64,000 nt of DNA from an uncultured Elusimicrobiaceae bacterium (GTDB taxonomy: Bacteria > Elusimicrobiota > Elusimicrobia > Elusimicrobiales > UBA9959): NCBI GenBank assembly GCA_964415175.1, contig CAYPYG010000007.1, positions 10,869 through 74,868 on the forward strand, read 5' to 3'. Below the pieces are notes generated by a model that was not told the DNA's origin, made no database searches, and saw only the letters and a list, made by a program, of their open reading frames with translations. Each line of letters begins with the position of its first letter. Position 1 is the first letter of the stretch. A program made the translations under genes and the position numbers. Positions 6,879 through 20,094 of this stretch are shown here, one piece after another.

Positions 6879-7844
6879 ATGCAGGACATCAAGCCAAGCG
6901 TCGTACTCTACTCCGGCTTCCTGCTGGCCTTCACGGGCCTGGCGGGGATGTACAGCGGTTTCCAGCCGCTCGCGGTTTTTTCGGCCCCGCTGCTCTGGTG
7001 GGCTTACGTCGCGCTTTCCGACAGCCTTATTTTCTCGCTGAAAGGCGAATCCCTCATCATCACCCGTACCGACGATTTCATCTGGATGGCTTTCTGTTCC
7101 TGCGCCGTCTGGCTCGTCTTCGAGGCGGCGAATATCAGGCTGGGGCTCTGGAAGTATTCCGGGCTGCCTTATTCCCGGTCCTACAGGTGGGCCTGGTACT
7201 TTCTTTACGGCTCGGCCCTCCTGCCCGCCCTGCACCAGTCCGCGGCCTTTCTTCTGCCGGGAAAGGCGCGTTCCCCGCGCCCGGAGAAGCTCTGCCGCCC
7301 CTCCGGCGGGGCTTCCAGGGCGGCGCTCGCGGCGGGAACGGCTGCGATCCTGTTATCTTCGGCTTTCCCGTCCTTACTCTTCCCTCTGGCCGCGCCCGGA
7401 CTGCTGATAACGGCCGAATGGCTGGCCCTGAGAACGGGACTCCCTTCTCTCTGGAGAAGCCGGCTCTCCGGCGGGAGGAAAGGCGCCGCGGCTATCGCCG
7501 CCGCCGGACTGTTCTGCGGCATCGTGGGAGAGATCTGGAACCTGGCGGGCGGTCCTTCGCGGATATACGCGTTCCCTTTCGCCGACGGACCGGACCTGCT
7601 GGGAATGCCCCTTGCCGGTTACGCGTTCTTTCCTTTGCTGGCCCTGGCCGCCTTCCCGCTGCATTCGCTCTCCCTGGCGGCAAGGGGGGAGGGGCGGGAC
7701 CTGCTCGGGAACGAGAACAACCTCTCTTTAAATACGCCGTCCTGGCTCCCGCCCGCCGCATACCCGGCGCTTTTCCTCCTCTACTACGCCGCCTTCAGAC
7801 TGCTGGACGCCTTTTCCGTGGAAATGTTCCTGGGCTGGCTTTAA
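6879..7844 (+). CDS. polytopic integral membrane protein, function unknown
   Basis: 321 aa with several hydrophobic spans. Chosen over the overlapping Arg/Pro-rich frame 6869-7924. No family recognised. Confidence 0.5.
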   Translation: MQDIKPSVVLYSGFLLAFTGLAGMYSGFQPLAVFSAPLLWWAYVALSDSLIFSLKGESLIITRTDDFIWMAFCSCAVWLVFEAANIRLGLWKYSGLPYSRSYRWAWYFLYGSALLPALHQSAAFLLPGKARSPRPEKLCRPSGGASRAALAAGTAAILLSSAFPSLLFPLAAPGLLITAEWLALRTGLPSLWRSRLSGGRKGAAAIAAAGLFCGIVGEIWNLAGGPSRIYAFPFADGPDLLGMPLAGYAFFPLLALAAFPLHSLSLAARGEGRDLLGNENNLSLNTPSWLPPAAYPALFLLYYAAFRLLDAFSVEMFLGWL

Positions 7845-14085: not shown

Positions 14086-14364
14086 TTGACCAAAAGCATG
14101 GAACACGAGCTCGAAGGCGTCTGCGCCAAGTCGGTATCTTTCCGCGTCGTCGGGGGGAAGCTCAAAGGCGTGAAGTTCTACAAGGGCTGCCCCGGCAATC
14201 TCCGGGCCATGGCCCTGCTGCTCGAAGGCATGCCGGTCAGGGAAGCGGTACGCAAGCTCAAGGGGATAAAGTGCGGCTCCAAGAAGACCTCCTGCTCGGA
14301 CCAGCTGGCCCGCGTCCTGGAGAAACTCGCCCGGGCCGATAAGGCGGCGGCCGTCAGGCCCTAG
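14086..14364 (+). CDS. TIGR03905-type TSCPD domain protein
   Basis: 92 aa with GVCAKSVSFRV, FYKGCPGNLRAM, GIKCGSKKTSCSDQLA (4-Cys TSCPD signature). The start may be TTG 14086 or ATG 14098. Confidence 0.8.
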   Translation: MTKSMEHELEGVCAKSVSFRVVGGKLKGVKFYKGCPGNLRAMALLLEGMPVREAVRKLKGIKCGSKKTSCSDQLARVLEKLARADKAAAVRP

Positions 14365-15038
14365 TGCGTCCTCCCGTCGCGTATCTCCAGCACCCGGTCG
14401 GCGGCTCTGGCGAGTTCCGGGTTGTGGGTCACCATCAGCACCGCGACGCCCCTTGAGGCCAGCCCTTTCAGTATCTCCTTTATCTCTTCGGAACGGCGGC
14501 TGTCCAGGTTGCCCGTCGGCTCGTCGGCCAGCAGCACCCTGGGGCCGTTGATGAGCGCGCGGGCTATGGCCACGCGCTGCATCTCGCCGCCGGAAAGCTC
14601 GCCCGGGAGATGGTCCTCCCGGCGGTCTATGCCGAGCAGTTTCATGACCTCGCGCGGGTTCCAGCCGCCCTCGCCCCGGTAGAAAGCGCCCGGCAGCATG
14701 ATGTTCTCCAGCACCGTCAGCGTGGGCACCAGGTAGAATTTCTGGAAAACATAGCCGTAGAAGCGCCGGCGCACCAGCGTCAGTTCGCCTTCGGGCAGTT
14801 CGCGGTGGCCGCCGAAGACCAGCTCGCCTCCGACGCGCAGCGTGCCCGAGGTTGGATTGTCCAGGCATCCCAGCATATTGAGCAGCGTCGTCTTGCCCGA
14901 ACCCGACGGACCGATGATGGCCGTCATCTCGCCGGACCTGATGTCCATGGAAACGCCGTCGACGGCGCGCACTTCTTCCGCGCCGCGGCGGTACGATTTC
15001 CGCAGGTCCTTGGCTGATATCAGTATATCGTTGGTCAT
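14361..15038 (-). CDS. ABC transporter ATP-binding protein (MacB/LolD-type)
   Basis: Walker A GPSGSGKTT, signature LSGGEMQRVAIARAL, Walker B LLADEPTGNLD. Confidence 0.9.
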   Translation of the reverse strand: MTNDILISAKDLRKSYRRGAEEVRAVDGVSMDIRSGEMTAIIGPSGSGKTTLLNMLGCLDNPTSGTLRVGGELVFGGHRELPEGELTLVRRRFYGYVFQKFYLVPTLTVLENIMLPGAFYRGEGGWNPREVMKLLGIDRREDHLPGELSGGEMQRVAIARALINGPRVLLADEPTGNLDSRRSEEIKEILKGLASRGVAVLMVTHNPELARAADRVLEIRDGRTH

Positions 15039-15039
15039 A

Positions 15040-16230
15040 TCACTGCTCCCCTTCGATGCGTATGGCTTCCAGCGGCCGCACGCGCGCGGCGCGCCAGGCC
15101 GGGTAAAGACCGCTGAGCAGGCCCCCGGCCGTTATGAGGACGAAGGCGAAGCCCGTGATGGCCGGGTCCAGGGCGATGAGGGCGCCGTTGGGCGCGTAGG
15201 GCAGGAAGTAGCGCACGGCCGCCTCGCTCAGGCCGGCCGTTACGAAGGCCAGGCCTATGCCCGCCGCGCCGCCCAGGCCGCAGAGTATCGCGGTCTCCGT
15301 CCAGATCAGGCGGAAGACGTCGAAGGGCATCGCGCCCATGCTCTTTATGATGCCTATCTCCGCGTAGCGCTCCATCACCGACATCAGCACGGTGTTGATC
15401 ACGCCGGCCATCGCGATTATCAGCGCTATGCCGGCGATGCCCATCGCTATCACGCGCGCGCTGTTGACCAGGTTCATGATCGTGGACTTTACCTGCGCCA
15501 TGGAGACCACCTGCACGTCGGGCAGGTCGTAGAGCTTGTTCTCGAAGGCCGGGATATCGGCCTCCTTCTTCACCTTTATGCCGAGGCCCGTCAGCTTGCC
15601 CTTGCGGTCGAACATCCCGCGCACCGCGCCGAGCGGCATGAATATAGTCCCGTCGTCCTGCGTGCCGGAGCGCTTGAGCACGCCGACCACCTTGACCGGC
15701 TTCTCGACCCCGACTACAAGCATCAGGTCGCCGGCCTCGCGCGTCTCGAGCTCGGCCGCCTCGTAGCCCAGCACGGCCTCGTAGGCCTTGTCGTCGGTGA
15801 ACCAGCCGCCCTGCTTGAACTCCAGGTAAGGCTTCATCGACGGGAAGGTAGCCGGGTCCACGCCCAGGTAGGCGGCTATAGCGCCGTTCTCGCCCTTATC
15901 CGGGTCGAAGACGCCGTGCATCAGCATCGGGGTGACCTTCTCCACTTCGGGGTGCTTGAAAACGTCCTTCACGATGGACTCGTCCATGTAGCGCAGGCCG
16001 GTGCCGCCCTTGAGCATCAGCGTGGCGGCCTCGTAGGGGCAGCCCTTGGCCGTCAGCAGCACCTGGAAGCCCATATTGTCGATGTCGCGGTTGAGGCCCT
16101 GCTGGTAGCCCCTGTTGAAGCCCAGCAGCGTGGCCAGCACCCAGGCCGACAGCATGATGCCGCCGGCGGTGAGCGCGGTGCGCGTCTTCTTGCGCAGCAG
16201 GTTCTTATAGGCTATGGAATATACGGTCAT
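15040..16230 (-). CDS. ABC transporter permease, FtsX/MacB-type with periplasmic domain
   Basis: 396 aa. One N-terminal TM, a ~220-aa external domain and 3 C-terminal TM spans with the FtsX-type ERYAEIGIIKSMGA motif. Confidence 0.85.
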   Translation of the reverse strand: MTVYSIAYKNLLRKKTRTALTAGGIMLSAWVLATLLGFNRGYQQGLNRDIDNMGFQVLLTAKGCPYEAATLMLKGGTGLRYMDESIVKDVFKHPEVEKVTPMLMHGVFDPDKGENGAIAAYLGVDPATFPSMKPYLEFKQGGWFTDDKAYEAVLGYEAAELETREAGDLMLVVGVEKPVKVVGVLKRSGTQDDGTIFMPLGAVRGMFDRKGKLTGLGIKVKKEADIPAFENKLYDLPDVQVVSMAQVKSTIMNLVNSARVIAMGIAGIALIIAMAGVINTVLMSVMERYAEIGIIKSMGAMPFDVFRLIWTETAILCGLGGAAGIGLAFVTAGLSEAAVRYFLPYAPNGALIALDPAITGFAFVLITAGGLLSGLYPAWRAARVRPLEAIRIEGEQ

Positions 16231-16844
16231 TTTTTCTTCTCCGTGAACACCAGCTCGTCCATGAGTATGAGGTTCTTCTTGACGGCGCGCATGACGTTGG
16301 GGAAGTCCGCGGCGGCTCTCTCCGGCGCTTTGAGGGAGGCGGCGGGAGTGCCGGGCTTCGCGGACGCCCTGACCGGGTCGTAGCCGGAGAAGTCAGGCAG
16401 CGCGAGACCCTCGAACTGGGCGCCGAATTCTTTCGAGCGCAGGTCCTTCGCCGCGCGCGAGGTGAGCTTCTGTATATAGAAAGACCTTATCGTCCCGGAC
16501 TTGTCCAGGGCGAGGAAGACCTGTATGCCGCCGAACTGTCCTTTCTGGTTCACGCCGTGGATGTGCCCGAGCGGCTCGGTGCCGCGGTAGATATCGTAGA
16601 CCGTATACGGCACGTCGATCGTCTCGTAGAGACCCTTGAACCTGTCGCCCAGCCGCTTCTCGATGCGGGCCAGCAGCGCCTCGCCGCCGGCGGCCTTGAC
16701 CGTCAGGTAGCGGACCTTGTAGCCGGTGGAGGAGGGGAAAAGCCGCTCCACGTCGCGGTCCGGGTCGTTGAGGTCGCAGCCGACGGCCGCGAAGGCCGGC
16801 GCGGCCCAGGCGGAGAAAAAGAGGGACAAAAATACCTTTTTCAT
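16227..16844 (-). CDS. periplasmic protein, FMN_bind-like domain (tentative)
   Basis: 205 aa. Signal peptide MKKVFLSLFFSAWAAPAFA. GVNQKGQFGGIQVFLALDKSGTIRSFYIQ..FGAQFEG resembles FMN_bind domains but lacks the usual Thr/Ser flavinylation context. Confidence 0.4.
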   Translation of the reverse strand: MKKVFLSLFFSAWAAPAFAAVGCDLNDPDRDVERLFPSSTGYKVRYLTVKAAGGEALLARIEKRLGDRFKGLYETIDVPYTVYDIYRGTEPLGHIHGVNQKGQFGGIQVFLALDKSGTIRSFYIQKLTSRAAKDLRSKEFGAQFEGLALPDFSGYDPVRASAKPGTPAASLKAPERAAADFPNVMRAVKKNLILMDELVFTEKKK

Positions 16845-16852
16845 GGAACCCC

Positions 16853-17821
16853 TTATATCGGTATATAGTAATAGACCTGCGCGACGGCGCGCCGGTCCAT
16901 GGCCGTCTCGTCGTACTCGAACATGGCGCGCAGCGTCAGGTAAGGAGTGGCGGCGCAGGAGGCGCCGGCCGCCAGCGCCCAGCCCTCCATTCCTTCCATC
17001 CCCTCGTAAACCGCCTGGCCCTCCAGTTTCAGCCGGCTCTCCTCCAGGAGGTTGAGCCCCAGCCGCGCCAGGCCGGCGGCGTAATCCATACCGGACTTTT
17101 TACCCGCGCGCAGGTCGGCGCGCAGTTCCCAGCGGTCCCAGAGCAGGGCGTAGTCGGCGCCGAAGGCGGAATAGCTCTTCTCGGCGCCGTTCATAAGCTC
17201 GTAGCCCATCACGGACGGGGTCTCGCCCAGGGAAGCGTAGAGCCCGAGCGTCCCGTTGTCGCGGTTAAGGACGCCCAGCCCGGTGCGGGCCGAGGCCAGC
17301 CAGCCGCCGGCGCCGCGCAGGCGCATGCCCGAGCCGGTGGTCAGCGAGACGGCGGCGTCGCCCCAGTCGTAGTCGCGCGAGCCGCCCAGGCCCCAGTCCC
17401 GGTCGAAACCGTAGCCGTACATGGGCAGCGTCTGCATCAGCGCGTTGTGCGTGTCGAAGTAGGATTCCAGCCCCGCCGCCGTCCTGTTATGCCCCGCCCA
17501 GGCGTAGCCGCCCCAGGGCGCGCGCGCGCGGTAATAAGCGTTATAGACCTGGGGGCGGGTGCGCTCCGGCGCGTCGGGATCGTGCGCCAGCCGCGCCTGC
17601 AGGGCCAGCGTCGAGCCGCCGCCGGGGCGGTGAACCAGGTCGAAACCGGCGGAGGTTCTCTGCATCGGCTCCATGGCGTGCATGGAATGCCAGATCTCCG
17701 ACCTTTCGGCCGAGGAATACCCTCCGACACCCTGCAGCTCCAGGAAAAGGAGCGAGCTGCCGGCCGCGGCCGGCAGGGGGGAGAACAGCAGGCTAGATAG
17801 TAAGAAGCTTGCGGCCTTCAT
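16853..17821 (-). CDS. predicted outer-membrane beta-barrel protein
   Basis: 322 aa with a signal peptide. Gly/Tyr/Ala-rich alternating amphipathic segments throughout. No family recognised. Confidence 0.45.
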   Translation of the reverse strand: MKAASFLLSSLLFSPLPAAAGSSLLFLELQGVGGYSSAERSEIWHSMHAMEPMQRTSAGFDLVHRPGGGSTLALQARLAHDPDAPERTRPQVYNAYYRARAPWGGYAWAGHNRTAAGLESYFDTHNALMQTLPMYGYGFDRDWGLGGSRDYDWGDAAVSLTTGSGMRLRGAGGWLASARTGLGVLNRDNGTLGLYASLGETPSVMGYELMNGAEKSYSAFGADYALLWDRWELRADLRAGKKSGMDYAAGLARLGLNLLEESRLKLEGQAVYEGMEGMEGWALAAGASCAATPYLTLRAMFEYDETAMDRRAVAQVYYYIPI

Positions 17822-18230
17822 AGAGCGGCTTCCCTTCGCGAGATACGCGCACGACTATCTCCCACTCGCCGGCCATGCTGAACTCCACCGGGAAGAGGTA
17901 ATGCCCTTTCTTGTTGAGGATGAAAGGCTTGGGCCCGGAATCGTGATAACGCATCGAGGGCATGCCGTATTCCCCCTGCAGGGTATAGCCGGTATCGGGC
18001 TTGCCGTCCGGGCCGAAGGCCTGCAGGTTCACGATGATGACGCCCAGCTTGGGCTTCTCGCTGAACTTCCAGGAGAAGCGTCCTCCGTCGGAGAGGGGGA
18101 TATCGGCCCCCTCTCGAAGTTCCTGGGCCCCCGCCGTAACGCCCGCCTTTCCGGAGGCTCCCGCTTCCGGCCCTTTGGAACAAGCCGAGAACGAAACTAA
18201 AAACACCGCGGCCGTCAGTATCGCTTTCAT
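17793..18230 (-). CDS. YtkA/FixH-like lipoprotein (Ig-like periplasmic domain)
   Basis: Start taken at MKAILTAAVFLVSFSAC (lipobox). The GEWEIVVRVSREGKPLYEG tail is typical of YtkA-like domains. ATGA overlap with the fur stop. Confidence 0.5.
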   Translation of the reverse strand: MKAILTAAVFLVSFSACSKGPEAGASGKAGVTAGAQELREGADIPLSDGGRFSWKFSEKPKLGVIIVNLQAFGPDGKPDTGYTLQGEYGMPSMRYHDSGPKPFILNKKGHYLFPVEFSMAGEWEIVVRVSREGKPLYEGRKLLTI

Positions 18231-18673
18231 AAGGTTCCTTCCTTCAGGCACCTCTTACAGGTACCATATATCTCCACCTTGCTTCCAGCGGGGGAAAAAC
18301 CCGTTCCGGCCGACAGGCGGCGGAATATTTTTTCCGGACCCCGCAGGGGGACCTCCGTTACCGAACCGCATTCCCGGCAGACCAGGTGGGCGTGCTCCGT
18401 CCTCGCCCCGGCCAGCTCATAGACCGAAGGCTTCTTCCCTCTCTTGAACTCTACTACCTTGCCGCAGCCGCAAAGGCACTTGAGAGAGCGGTATACCGTC
18501 GCTATGCCGATACCGGGCAGGGAGCGCTCGGCGAGGCGCCGTATCTCCTCCGCGGTACGGTGCCCGGAGACCGACGCCACCGCCTTGAGCACCGCTTCTC
18601 TGCGGCGGCTGCGCCGGGGCTCCGGTTTCGGGCAATCGCAGATCCCTCCGCAGGGGCATCTTTCAGGTTTCAT
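18227..18673 (-). CDS. Fur-family metalloregulator with an N-terminal Cys-rich extension
   Basis: 148 aa. Winged-helix part RREAVLKAV..HRTAEEIRRL..IATVYRSL, and structural CxxC pairs CRECG and CKRC. An extra N-terminus, MKPERCPCGGICDCP, is present. Confidence 0.85.
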   Translation of the reverse strand: MKPERCPCGGICDCPKPEPRRSRRREAVLKAVASVSGHRTAEEIRRLAERSLPGIGIATVYRSLKCLCGCGKVVEFKRGKKPSVYELAGARTEHAHLVCRECGSVTEVPLRGPEKIFRRLSAGTGFSPAGSKVEIYGTCKRCLKEGTL

Positions 18674-18677
18674 ATTT

Positions 18678-18696
18678 GATAATGATTATCATTATT
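18678..18696 (-). promoter_or_regulatory. Fur box
   Basis: The minus-strand 19-mer AATAATGATAATCATTATC matches the classical consensus GATAATGATAATCATTATC (from memory) at 18/19 positions. It overlaps the -10 of the fur promoter. Confidence 0.75.
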
Positions 18697-18719
18697 CCAC
18701 ATACAGTGCGGTCTGTCAA
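18691..18719 (-). promoter_or_regulatory. sigma70-like promoter of the fur operon (TTGACA-17 nt-AATAAT)
   Basis: On the minus strand, TTGACA (18719-18714), a 17-nt spacer, then AATAAT (18696-18691). ATG 18673 lies 17 nt past the -10, with no SD. Confidence 0.6.
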
Positions 18720-18835
18720 CCGGCGTGAGGCGGGGAAGTTCCGGGCGGCATATATTCTTTTTAAAAATTTATATAATAATCGTGCGGCCGCGGCCGCATC
18801 GATCATTTGACCAGGGAAACAAAGGGAGAACACAA

Positions 18836-19420
18836 ATGAAGAAAGATCTGCTCGCCGGTGTGATATTTTTCGCGGTGACGATGGCCGCCTACGCCCATTG
18901 CGGCAAATGCCCGGGCGACAAGAAAGCGGAAGGCGTCAAGGACGGCCCCAAGGTGGAGTGCCCCATGGCCGAACAGGCCGCCGGGGGCGCCAAACACGAC
19001 TGCCCGATGAACGCGAAGGGCGCGGACGAGAAAAAGCACGATTGCCCCGGGATGAAGGGCGAAAAAGGCCACGACTGCGGCAAGCACAAGGACGGCAAGT
19101 CCGCCGCCTGCCCCAAGCAGATGGAAGGCGTCGAGAAGACCGTCAAGAACACCAAGGACGGCGTCGAGCTGACGCTGGCCGCCAAGGGCGAGGAAGCCAT
19201 AGCCAAGCTCCAGGAACTGACCGCCGTCCATTACGCCGGCGGGAACTGCTCCTGCCTGCCCAAGGACGCGACGGCCAAATACGAGAACACCGCGGCCGGC
19301 GTTAAGATATACCTGGCCTCGAAGAACCCCGCGACCGTGAAAACCATGCAGGCCCAGTACGCGTCCGGCGGCCACAAGTGCGGCGCGGAGCACGCCGGGG
19401 AAGAGAAGGCGAAAAAATGA
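18836..19420 (+). CDS. secreted Cys/His/Met-rich protein with HDC repeats (putative periplasmic metal-binding protein)
   Basis: ATG 18836 is preceded by AAAGGGAGA. Signal peptide MKKDLLAGVIFFAVTMAAYA. The mature part has HCGKC, KHDCPM, KHDCPGM, GHDCGKH, GNCSC and GGHKCGAEH (10 Cys, about 8 His). Confidence 0.7.
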   Translation: MKKDLLAGVIFFAVTMAAYAHCGKCPGDKKAEGVKDGPKVECPMAEQAAGGAKHDCPMNAKGADEKKHDCPGMKGEKGHDCGKHKDGKSAACPKQMEGVEKTVKNTKDGVELTLAAKGEEAIAKLQELTAVHYAGGNCSCLPKDATAKYENTAAGVKIYLASKNPATVKTMQAQYASGGHKCGAEHAGEEKAKK

Positions 19421-20094
19421 CCCTGCACAAGGCGCTCGAGAAAGTAACCTTCCTCAAAGGGCTGGGCAAAGCCGACCTTAACCATATCGTGAAGATCGCC
19501 TCCGTTCGCCACTACAAGGCGGGGGACATGGTCTTCAACAAGGAAGAGGTGGGGAAGAACTTTTTCATCGTCAACGCCGGGAAGATAAAGATCTTCACCT
19601 CGCTCGGCGGCGGCAAGCGCAAGACCTTCGCCTTCCTGGGCAAAGGGGACTTTTTCGGCGAGATGTCGCTGCTCGGCGGCAAGATACGCTCCGCCTCGGC
19701 CCAGGCCGCGGAGGACACCGAACTGCTGGTCATCTCCAAGCTGAACTTCGGCAGACTGGTGATGCGCCACGCCGATTTCAGCATGAAGATCATCCGCACC
19801 CTGGTGGAACGCCTGAACAAGGCCGACAAGGAGATCGAGTCCATGCTGTTCCACAATATACTGGGACGGCTGGCCTCGGCCATACTCGACCTCGAGGCGA
19901 AGTCGAAGACCGGTCCGCTCACCGTGGAGATAGGCCAGGGCGAACTGGCCGAGTACCTGGGCACCACGCGCGTCCCCGTCTGCCGGGCGGTCAACTCGCT
20001 CAAGCGCAGCGGGATAATCGACTATAAGCGCGGACGCATACTCGTCAAGAGCAAGGCCAGGCTGCAGTCGATGGCCGCCAGGGCGCGCGGATGA
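19417..20094 (+). CDS. Crp/Fnr-family transcriptional regulator
   Basis: cNMP-binding domain (FFIVNAGKIKIF..GDFFGEMSLL) and a C-terminal HTH (ELAEYLGTTRVPVCRAVNSLKRSG). ATGA overlap with the upstream gene. Confidence 0.85.
   Translation: MTLHKALEKVTFLKGLGKADLNHIVKIASVRHYKAGDMVFNKEEVGKNFFIVNAGKIKIFTSLGGGKRKTFAFLGKGDFFGEMSLLGGKIRSASAQAAEDTELLVISKLNFGRLVMRHADFSMKIIRTLVERLNKADKEIESMLFHNILGRLASAILDLEAKSKTGPLTVEIGQGELAEYLGTTRVPVCRAVNSLKRSGIIDYKRGRILVKSKARLQSMAARARG

Follow-up and report, generated by a model that had tools for sequence, protein, structure and literature searches.

A stretch of 64,000 nt from contig CAYPYG010000007.1 of an uncultured Elusimicrobiaceae bacterium was analyzed and is called the window here. 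It carries a gene at positions 18836–19420 that encodes a predicted secreted protein of 194 amino acids (aa), rich in Cys and His, called the target. The target is probably an exported periplasmic metal binder with a copper-handling role, acting as a buffer or chaperone of Cu(I) or Ag(I). The gene and the parts of its product are as follows.

18836–19420, + strand: coding sequence of the 194-aa predicted secreted Cys/His-rich protein, ATG at 18836 to TGA ending at 19420 (stop included), from the open reading frame (ORF) and its translation
18836–18895, + strand: candidate Sec-type signal peptide, residues 1–20, MKKDLLAGVIFFAVTMAAYA, with cleavage predicted after A-Y-A, from the n/h/c pattern
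18896–19108, + strand: predicted disordered arm rich in Lys, Gly and Ala, residues 21–91, with HCGKCP, ECPM, KHDCPM, KHDCPGM and GHDCGKH, from predicted local distance difference test (pLDDT) scores <50 and Cys conservation
19109–19240, + strand: beta-beta-alpha repeat 1, residues 92–135, with conserved C92-P before it and invariant H132 at its end, from AlphaFold2 and alignment
19241–19369, + strand: beta-beta-alpha repeat 2, residues 136–178, with invariant C138 (N-C-S-C-L-P) before it, from AlphaFold2 and alignment
19370–19417, + strand: C-terminal tail GGHKCGAEHAGEEKAKK, residues 179–194; many orthologues run on here into an HMBD domain, which the target lacks

An initial annotation, made from the letters alone, had read the product as a protein with a signal peptide and a mature chain of about 175 aa containing 10 Cys, about 8 His and several Met, disordered in its N-terminal half and structured in its C-terminal half. 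This description was borne out. The mature protein, which begins with HC after A-Y-A, has 174 aa, including 10 Cys, 8 His, 5 Met, 29 Lys, 26 Ala and 22 Gly. Translation of the ORF gave every motif that had been listed, in the order given: HCGKC (residues 21–25), VECPM (40–44), KHDCPM (53–58), KHDCPGM (67–73), GHDCGKH (78–84), AACP (90–93), GNCSC (136–140) and GGHKCGAEH (178–186). The predicted signal peptide was read by eye as MKKD, a hydrophobic core and A-Y-A. This n/h/c pattern is kept across homologues, whose N-termini are all alike, and signal-peptide-like N-termini were found by the same reading in the aligned relatives. No lipobox or twin-arginine motif was read in the N-terminus of the target.

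The HDC and CP motifs are far more frequent than chance allows. At least three HDC occurred in 0 of 100,000 shuffles of the mature sequence, and at least five CP in 1 of 100,000. Among 14 full-length homologues, mean identity across residues 21–91 is 94% for Cys, 84% for Cys and His together and 62% for other residues (Mann-Whitney p = 0.006). Cys are thus the best-conserved residues of the disordered arm in the homologue alignment, and the arm motifs are, by this measure, under selection. The seven N-terminal Cys, which occur in H-D-C-P, C-P-M and C-x-x-C-P contexts, are conserved, and six of them lie in the predicted disordered region. C81, C92, H132 and C138 are invariant in the alignment, and H180 and C182 of the tail are 93% conserved. 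Variants of the motifs, H-[DE]-C-P and D-C-x-D-C-P-M-H, were seen again in relatives. A recent tandem duplication behind the HDC array was looked for at the DNA level and none was found; only the old duplication of the beta-beta-alpha repeat is visible.

AlphaFold2, run with 16 homologues, gave pLDDT <50 at residues 16–90 and about 90 at residues 99–176. Residues 92–178 form a confidently predicted folded domain in the order strand-strand-helix-strand-strand-helix, and a domain-only model had a pLDDT of 81.6 and a predicted TM score of 0.73. This folded half consists of two copies of a beta-beta-alpha repeat of about 40 aa, which align to each other as protein (E = 3e-4) and as DNA (71% over 41 nt, spacing 138 nt). 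Foldseek searches against the PDB with the full and domain-only models gave no match at E <= 0.001, the best being E = 0.04 (full model) and E = 0.12 (domain). The best matches were mostly de novo designs, with a viral phosphoprotein also among them, and their TM scores were below 0.5; no metallochaperone fold could be assigned from them. Marginal PDB profile matches to flagellin (E = 0.022–0.7) fall on a segment like N-x-x-D-G-I-S-L-x-Q-T-A-E-G, which also accounts for sub-threshold matches to the Pfam models Flagellin_N and Flg_hook. The equivalent flagellin segment is helical, and the match was therefore rejected and judged to be chance or convergence.

Searches of Pfam-A, NCBIfam and PDB sequences with the target protein returned nothing meaningful. 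A word-indexed protein search found 15 homologues with 35–88% identity, and all those with a source name come from Elusimicrobia/Elusimicrobiota assemblies. A profile search of 1.84 billion representative proteins, made with the full-length profile, found 922 proteins at E <= 1e-3 and 109 at E <= 1e-10. The repeat consensus is G-V-E-x-x-V-x-N-x-x-N-G-V-x-I-T-x-T-A-x-x-P-E-x-V-x-K-I-Q-E, and a member has at least one repeat of the form G-[VA]-E-x-x-V-x-N-x-x-[ND]-G-V-x-[IV]-T-x-T-[AS]-x-x-x-E-x-V-x-K-[IL]-Q. A profile of residues 90–185 scored 178.8 bits on the target ORF, the sole copy in the window. No Pfam or NCBIfam model covers the repeat. Ten diverse relatives carry only the source names 'hypothetical protein' or 'YHS domain-containing protein'. 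No paper on the repeat family was found in the literature searched; PF19335 (HMBD) was mentioned only in papers on a chloroplast chaperone, which were not used. The novelty claimed by the initial annotation, which placed the protein outside CopZ, CusF, CopC, ZinT and CsoR, therefore holds as to known models and structures, with the amendment that the target is not an orphan and belongs to a large unnamed family.

The number of repeats per family member ranges from one to about eight, and an N-terminal lipobox or signal-peptide-like sequence is present in nearly all of them. With the profile of residues 90–185, the repeat was found in 139 of 168 proteins fetched; 93 of the 139 have at least four Cys and 32 have none. 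Because of these 32, the repeat is best read as a scaffold, with metal-type ligands placed before and between the repeats. A Cys-rich clade has Cys-Pro before each repeat: C92 is nearly invariant and C138 invariant among 34 relatives, down to 27% identity. Weak TusA and HMA matches in some relatives were below the gathering score or were summed from sub-threshold pieces, and were not used.

Domains fused to the repeat in relatives point to metal handling. Six homologues (P0002, P0003, P0007, P0013, P0014 and P0015) have a Pfam HMBD beyond the point where the target ends. This domain (PF19335; C-P-M ... C-P-x-C-G-M) has a gathering score of 23.6 bits, exceeded in P0007 (32.4 bits) and P0015 (24.9 bits). 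HMBD was found at E <= 0.001 in 17 of 34 aligned relatives and YHS/TRASH in 3 of 34; those scanned individually were over the gathering cut-off. Nearly all syntenic Elusimicrobia orthologues of the target have HMBD.

The gene neighbours of relatives point to copper. In three Elusimicrobia species, CusC-CusB-CusA-like genes (OEP, a CusB-like adaptor and an RND pump) lie immediately 5′ of the target orthologue on the same strand, and other Elusimicrobia loci have YHS-HMBD genes nearby. In the more distant relatives P0021 and P0023, the gene directly follows genes for OEP, the adaptor and the RND pump. These neighbouring CusB-like adaptors begin with HMBD. With Escherichia coli CusA the RND pump gave a score of 1009 bits, compared with 498 for the zinc pump ZneA, and it retains YMP, SMMET and RIDMLSTG, presumably the positions of the CusA Met triad. 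Relatives outside Elusimicrobia (Aminicenantes, Acidobacteriota, Eubacteriales and Coriobacteriia) combine a signal peptide and YHS with one copy of the repeat and a Met-rich CPMM linker. A P1B ATPase gene lies just 5′ of the relative on the same strand in 13 of 14 of these loci. For the two ATPases tested, the score against CopA was about double that against ZntA or CadA, and one locus (L035) has the order csoR-like gene, copA, relative. Judged by homology of the neighbours, the link to copper exporters thus recurs across independent lineages and involves exporters of two different types. The claim that the target is a candidate periplasmic metal binder is strengthened by these fusions and neighbours, and the metal can be narrowed: Cu(I), possibly Ag(I), is most likely.

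Several observations were made at the loci of relatives. Between copA and the YHS-repeat gene of L035, positions 7082–7600 are tandemly repeated DNA, with near-identical overlapping ORF translations ('...PWKEGSEQGERWKETLGKGFLPRVS...'). A cluster of genes for a cysteine-synthase-like protein (PALP), a Cys/Met-metabolism pyridoxal phosphate enzyme and a ThiF-rhodanese protein occurs with cus, copA and YHS-HMBD genes in L002 (2138–5365), L005 (3422–5532) and L010 (9166–12948). Such clustering in several Elusimicrobia loci hints that sulfur or thiol supply is tied to copper handling. A sister clade (P0129, P0148, P0125, P0108, P0113 and P0083; metagenome loci L047–L098) has two repeats, CC/CPM motifs and Cys-rich tails without HMBD. 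Several of its members lie about 1.2 kb from a gene for an extracytoplasmic function (ECF) sigma factor, as does P0041, whose neighborhood reads anti-sigma gene, PF13801 Metal_resist gene, repeat gene, ECF sigma gene.

The target gene is flanked by regulatory features and by two regulator genes.

18227–18673, − strand: divergent Fur-family regulator gene (PF01475, E = 2e-21)
18677–18691, no strand assigned: perfect 7-1-7 Fur box TGATAATGATTATCA, without a second exact match in the 64-kb window
18766–18780, + strand: conserved AATTTATATAATAAT element, probable −10 region of the target's own promoter, invariant in six close loci
18784–18797, + strand: GCGGC-N4-GCCGC hairpin 3′ of the −10-like element, probably at the mRNA 5′ end, with a conserved stem and a varying loop
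18822–18829, + strand: Shine-Dalgarno-like AAGGGAGA, 6 nt 5′ of the ATG, from reading of the sequence
19417–20094, + strand: Crp/Fnr-family regulator gene (cNMP_binding and HTH_Crp_2)

The initial annotation had the gene facing a Fur-box promoter and saw Fur-hexamer-like units (TTTATATAATAAT, near 18768–18780) in the target's own promoter. The box is real and lies in the shared intergenic region. It is 3 nt away from the start codon of fur, overlaps the −10 of TTGACA-17-AATAAT (minus strand), which is the sole sigma-70-like promoter found there, and is conserved in loci with a divergent fur gene. Because of this placement it is probably the autoregulatory operator of the fur operon, and it lies about 80 bp 5′ of the target's −10-like element. 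An overlapping match with three mismatches was also found; all matches in the window within three mismatches fall at 18677–18697, against 0.2 matches expected by chance. The hexamer-like units are the conserved TATATAAT element, and their resemblance to Fur hexamers is trivial because TATAAT itself fits NATWAT. No Fur-box match within three mismatches was found in the AATTTATATAATAAT element. In 14 of 16 orthologous loci, the TATATAAT core (18770–18777 in the window) lies 41–61 nt 5′ of the ATG. TTTATATAAT is, from its conservation, a −10-like element. Fur control of the target gene is not supported by this arrangement.

A 15-nt element, AATTTATATAAT[TA]AT, precedes the orthologue in 14 of 16 species (window, L001, L002, L005 and L016–L032). 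Its conservation exceeds what a −10 hexamer needs, so that it may double as an operator, for instance of the probably co-transcribed Crp-family regulator. The hairpin is present in the window, L001, L002 and L005, with folding energies of −8.8 to −12.9 kcal/mol, and is absent from more distant orthologous loci. AGGAG-like sequences lie at the position equivalent to the Shine-Dalgarno-like sequence in orthologous loci. On the other side of the intergenic region, the box at 18677–18691 and the promoter at 18691–18719 imply that the fur operon is autoregulated and has almost no leader. In relatives, ORF callers extend across the Fur box, which gives spurious 'MIIIVIN' N-termini.

The divergent regulator was compared among 13 orthologues (window, L001, L002, L005, L006, L016, L017, L019, L020, L023, L026, L028 and L029). 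Most or all have extra Cys motifs beyond the usual HHDH and C-x-x-C sites: an N-terminal C-D-C before an Arg-rich stretch (varied in L019, L020 and L028) and L-K-[CF]-L-C-[GA]-C-G-K in the winged-helix region. Such motifs are not associated with classical Fur. The effector of this regulator may not be iron, since the L006 regulator heads an operon that ends in a gene for a CopA-type ATPase. Downstream of fur, the window region 14361–18251 (− strand) encodes a lipoprotein with a weak YtkA/FixH-like match, a 322-aa probable outer-membrane barrel (weak FadL/Toluene_X match), a 205-aa secreted protein without a family, a MacB/FtsX permease and an ATP-binding cassette (ABC) ATPase. Related genomes have, in this position, genes for a 234–246-aa protein, a DUF4405/cytochrome-b561-like membrane protein and CopA.

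The gene order in the window and close relatives is a divergent fur-family gene, then the target orthologue, crp-family, hisS, aspS and a radical-SAM gene. Start and stop codons overlap as ATGA between target and crp (19417–19420) and between crp and hisS (20091–20094). Because of the overlap, the target and crp are probably co-transcribed, followed by hisS and aspS. In the genome scan, which covered 17 Elusimicrobia loci with one genome per species, the order target orthologue-crp-hisS was found in all loci with enough flank, though the orthologue is only 35–50% identical. The divergent fur gene lies beside it in about 8 of 16 of these loci, besides the window and close relatives. The grouping with hisS, and in some cases aspS, is unusual in that it puts a metal-type protein and a regulator together with tRNA synthetases of housekeeping function.

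A mechanism can be proposed from the motifs, the predicted fold and the relatives. The thiolate, imidazole and thioether groups of the arm would capture several Cu(I) in a reducing periplasm, and the arm would act in the manner of a metallothionein or a SilE/PcoE-like sponge. The CP cysteines of the folded domain would serve as a defined site or for docking and transfer. Most clade members end in HMBD, as the adjacent CusB-like adaptor starts, which suggests a like-to-like hand-over of metal. HMBD-bearing forms would thus pass metal to the HMBD of the adaptor of a CusCBA-type pump, and single-repeat relatives would act downstream of CopA, after Cu(I) has been expelled. The target copy would have lost HMBD and gained three HDC(P) units, serving mainly as a periplasmic copper buffer or sponge. 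This role is likelier than that of a dedicated pump chaperone because of the missing HMBD, the enlarged HDC(P) array and the absence of cus and copA genes from the 64 kb. Its own conserved promoter and the probable co-transcription with crp, hisS and aspS would suggest standing rather than Fur-gated expression.

Several points weigh against a copper role. The target protein has no HMBD (no match at E <= 1) and no YHS domain. No homologue of CusA, CusB or OEP (tblastn), of copA or of YHS-HMBD genes was found in the window, and the neighbours, namely Fur- and Crp-family regulators and housekeeping tRNA synthetases, do not indicate copper. Copper was therefore assigned through clade homology and synteny and not from the window. 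The P0129-like sister clade was not linked to cus or copA, as judged from rough, unreliable ORF calls in GC-rich contigs; this clade, together with the 32 repeat proteins without Cys, argues that the repeat itself is not a metal site. His-Asp-Cys would be a fitting ligand set for Zn(II), Ni(II), Co(II) or Fe(II) as well, and the Cys could be disulfide-bonded if the periplasm of the organism is oxidizing.

Other readings of the protein were weighed against Cu(I) or Ag(I) handling. That the protein binds or buffers a divalent metal (Zn, Cd, Ni or Co) in the periplasm, with His-Asp-Cys forming tetrahedral or octahedral ligand sets, is unlikely. His, Asp and Cys are classical ligands of Zn, Ni and Co, and the repeated motif is H-D-C rather than a Met-rich motif of the CusF/PcoE type. 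The membrane fusion protein neighbours of relatives also match CzcB_C-type Pfam models, and the gene adjoining P0041 encodes PF13801 Metal_resist, which we take to be the CnrX/ZraP-like family of Ni, Co and Zn proteins. The exporters argue the other way: the RND pumps beside relatives score about twice as high against CusA as against ZneA, both P1B ATPases tested are CopA-type and not ZntA- or CadA-type, and one of these loci opens with a csoR-like gene. The Met-rich CPMM linkers of single-repeat relatives are also typical of Cu(I). That the protein binds no metal, with Cys serving as disulfides or in thiol redox and the repeats as a generic envelope-stress or structural periplasmic module, is distinctly unlikely. 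The fold needs neither metal nor Cys, as the 32 of 139 repeat proteins without Cys indicate, and the sister clade is linked to ECF sigma genes and not to metal pumps. Structural disulfides are improbable because the predicted disordered region contains six of the seven N-terminal Cys. The Cys are also accompanied by His, Pro and Met in repeated motifs, and without metal it is hard to account for half of the aligned relatives being fused to HMBD or YHS, and for the adjacency to copper exporters.

Iron handling within a Fur regulon, such as periplasmic Fe(II) binding, is very unlikely. It is suggested by the perfect Fur box in the shared intergenic region, by the fur gene divergent in about half of the Elusimicrobia loci scanned and by the fur operon of the window, whose lipoprotein, outer-membrane protein and MacB/FtsX ABC transporter could be an uptake system. 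The box, however, sits on the fur −10, about 80 bp from that of the target, and no second box within three mismatches was found near the target promoter. In several species cusCBA takes the place of fur upstream while the order target orthologue-crp-hisS is unchanged, the fur-side operon of related loci carries a CopA-type ATPase gene, and no relative was found beside iron-uptake genes. Delivery of copper to a periplasmic cuproenzyme in the manner of PCuAC, Sco or NosL, rather than detoxification, is the least probable of these readings. A periplasmic Cys/His/Met protein whose gene is co-transcribed, to all appearance constitutively, with housekeeping genes would fit biogenesis. No cuproenzyme genes were seen beside the target or its relatives, however; the neighbours seen are exporters, and the target has no Pfam match to PCuAC, Sco or NosL. 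Two further candidates were rejected. A c-type cytochrome does not fit, as CxxC occurs only in H-C-G-K-C-P, where the residue following the second Cys is not His, and CxxCH is absent. An Fe-S protein does not fit Cys scattered in a disordered region and export that appears Sec-type rather than Tat-type.

If the target handles Cu(I), its working would be closest to that of CusF/SilF and SilE/PcoE; by sequence and predicted structure it is a member of neither. Like CusF and SilF, it is small and predicted to be secreted, and its relatives occur as an accessory gene in CusC-CusB-CusA-like operons, where they would hand over Cu(I). CusF is an OB-type beta-barrel with Met2-His-Trp ligands, whereas the target has no CusF match in Pfam-A, a predicted beta-beta-alpha-beta-beta-alpha order, Cys/His ligands and no adjacent cus operon. 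No CusF or SilF chain was among the top 50 Foldseek matches listed for either model. SilE and PcoE have Met/His motifs and fold into helices on binding. The target resembles them in a predicted signal peptide, a long region predicted to be disordered, reiterated short motifs and a favoured role as a multi-ion buffer; its motifs, in contrast, are Cys-based (H-D-C-P and C-P-M) and joined to a folded repeat domain, and no homology was detected. A functional analogy is possible, without family membership.

Orthologues and relatives carry HMBD (PF19335) and YHS (PF04945) in the same chain, and the short motif C-P-M is common to these domains and the target, whereas the target has neither domain and its defining repeat pair has no Pfam or NCBIfam model. 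The HMA domain (PF00403) of the cytoplasmic CopZ/Atx1 chaperones is likewise a small two-layer alpha/beta domain with Cys, and P0041 has a summed sub-domain HMA match, which was not used. The beta-beta-alpha-beta-beta-alpha order of the target is that expected from circular permutation of the ferredoxin-like βαββαβ order. A weak Foldseek match to a permuted ribosomal protein S6 hints at such a permutation of the modelled fold. The target nevertheless has no HMA match, its secondary-structure order differs, and its Cys precede strands instead of lying in an M-x-C-x-x-C loop before helix 1. No HMA structure was among the top 50 Foldseek matches listed for either model. Csp1 and the metallothioneins (SmtA/BmtA and MymT) buffer or store many Cu(I) through Cys thiolates, as is proposed for the target. 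Csp1, a Tat-exported four-helix bundle lined with Cys, is also extracytoplasmic, while metallothioneins are cytoplasmic; neither sequence nor predicted fold is common to them and the target.

A broader proposal is put forward tentatively. The repeat with its leading Cys-Pro may be a new, widespread periplasmic Cu(I)-handling module that replaces CusF, CopZ-like and PcoE-like proteins for CusCBA and CopA in anaerobic, poorly studied phyla (Elusimicrobiota, Aminicenantes/Acidobacteriota, some Firmicutes and Coriobacteriia). The target would be a derived form in which the HMBD docking domain was swapped for a tandem H-D-C-P array, giving a Sec-exported thiolate 'periplasmic metallothionein'.

Neither Pfam nor NCBIfam has a model for the family and no structure of it has been solved, so that it could be defined as a new one. 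If the copper prediction is wrong, the repeat family would still be an accessory that copper-export operons often carry for no explained reason. Well-studied periplasmic copper proteins (CusF, CopC, PcoE/SilE and PCuAC) use mostly Met/His ligands, which are preferred because Cys thiols are oxidized in an aerobic periplasm. Cu(I) is the more toxic form of copper under anoxia. HMBD and YHS are still mostly annotation labels, and if the reading is correct they would gain a testable partner and transfer pathway. A secreted Cys-based family that occurs with HMBD/YHS beside CusCBA and CopA would then bear on how anaerobes buffer Cu(I).

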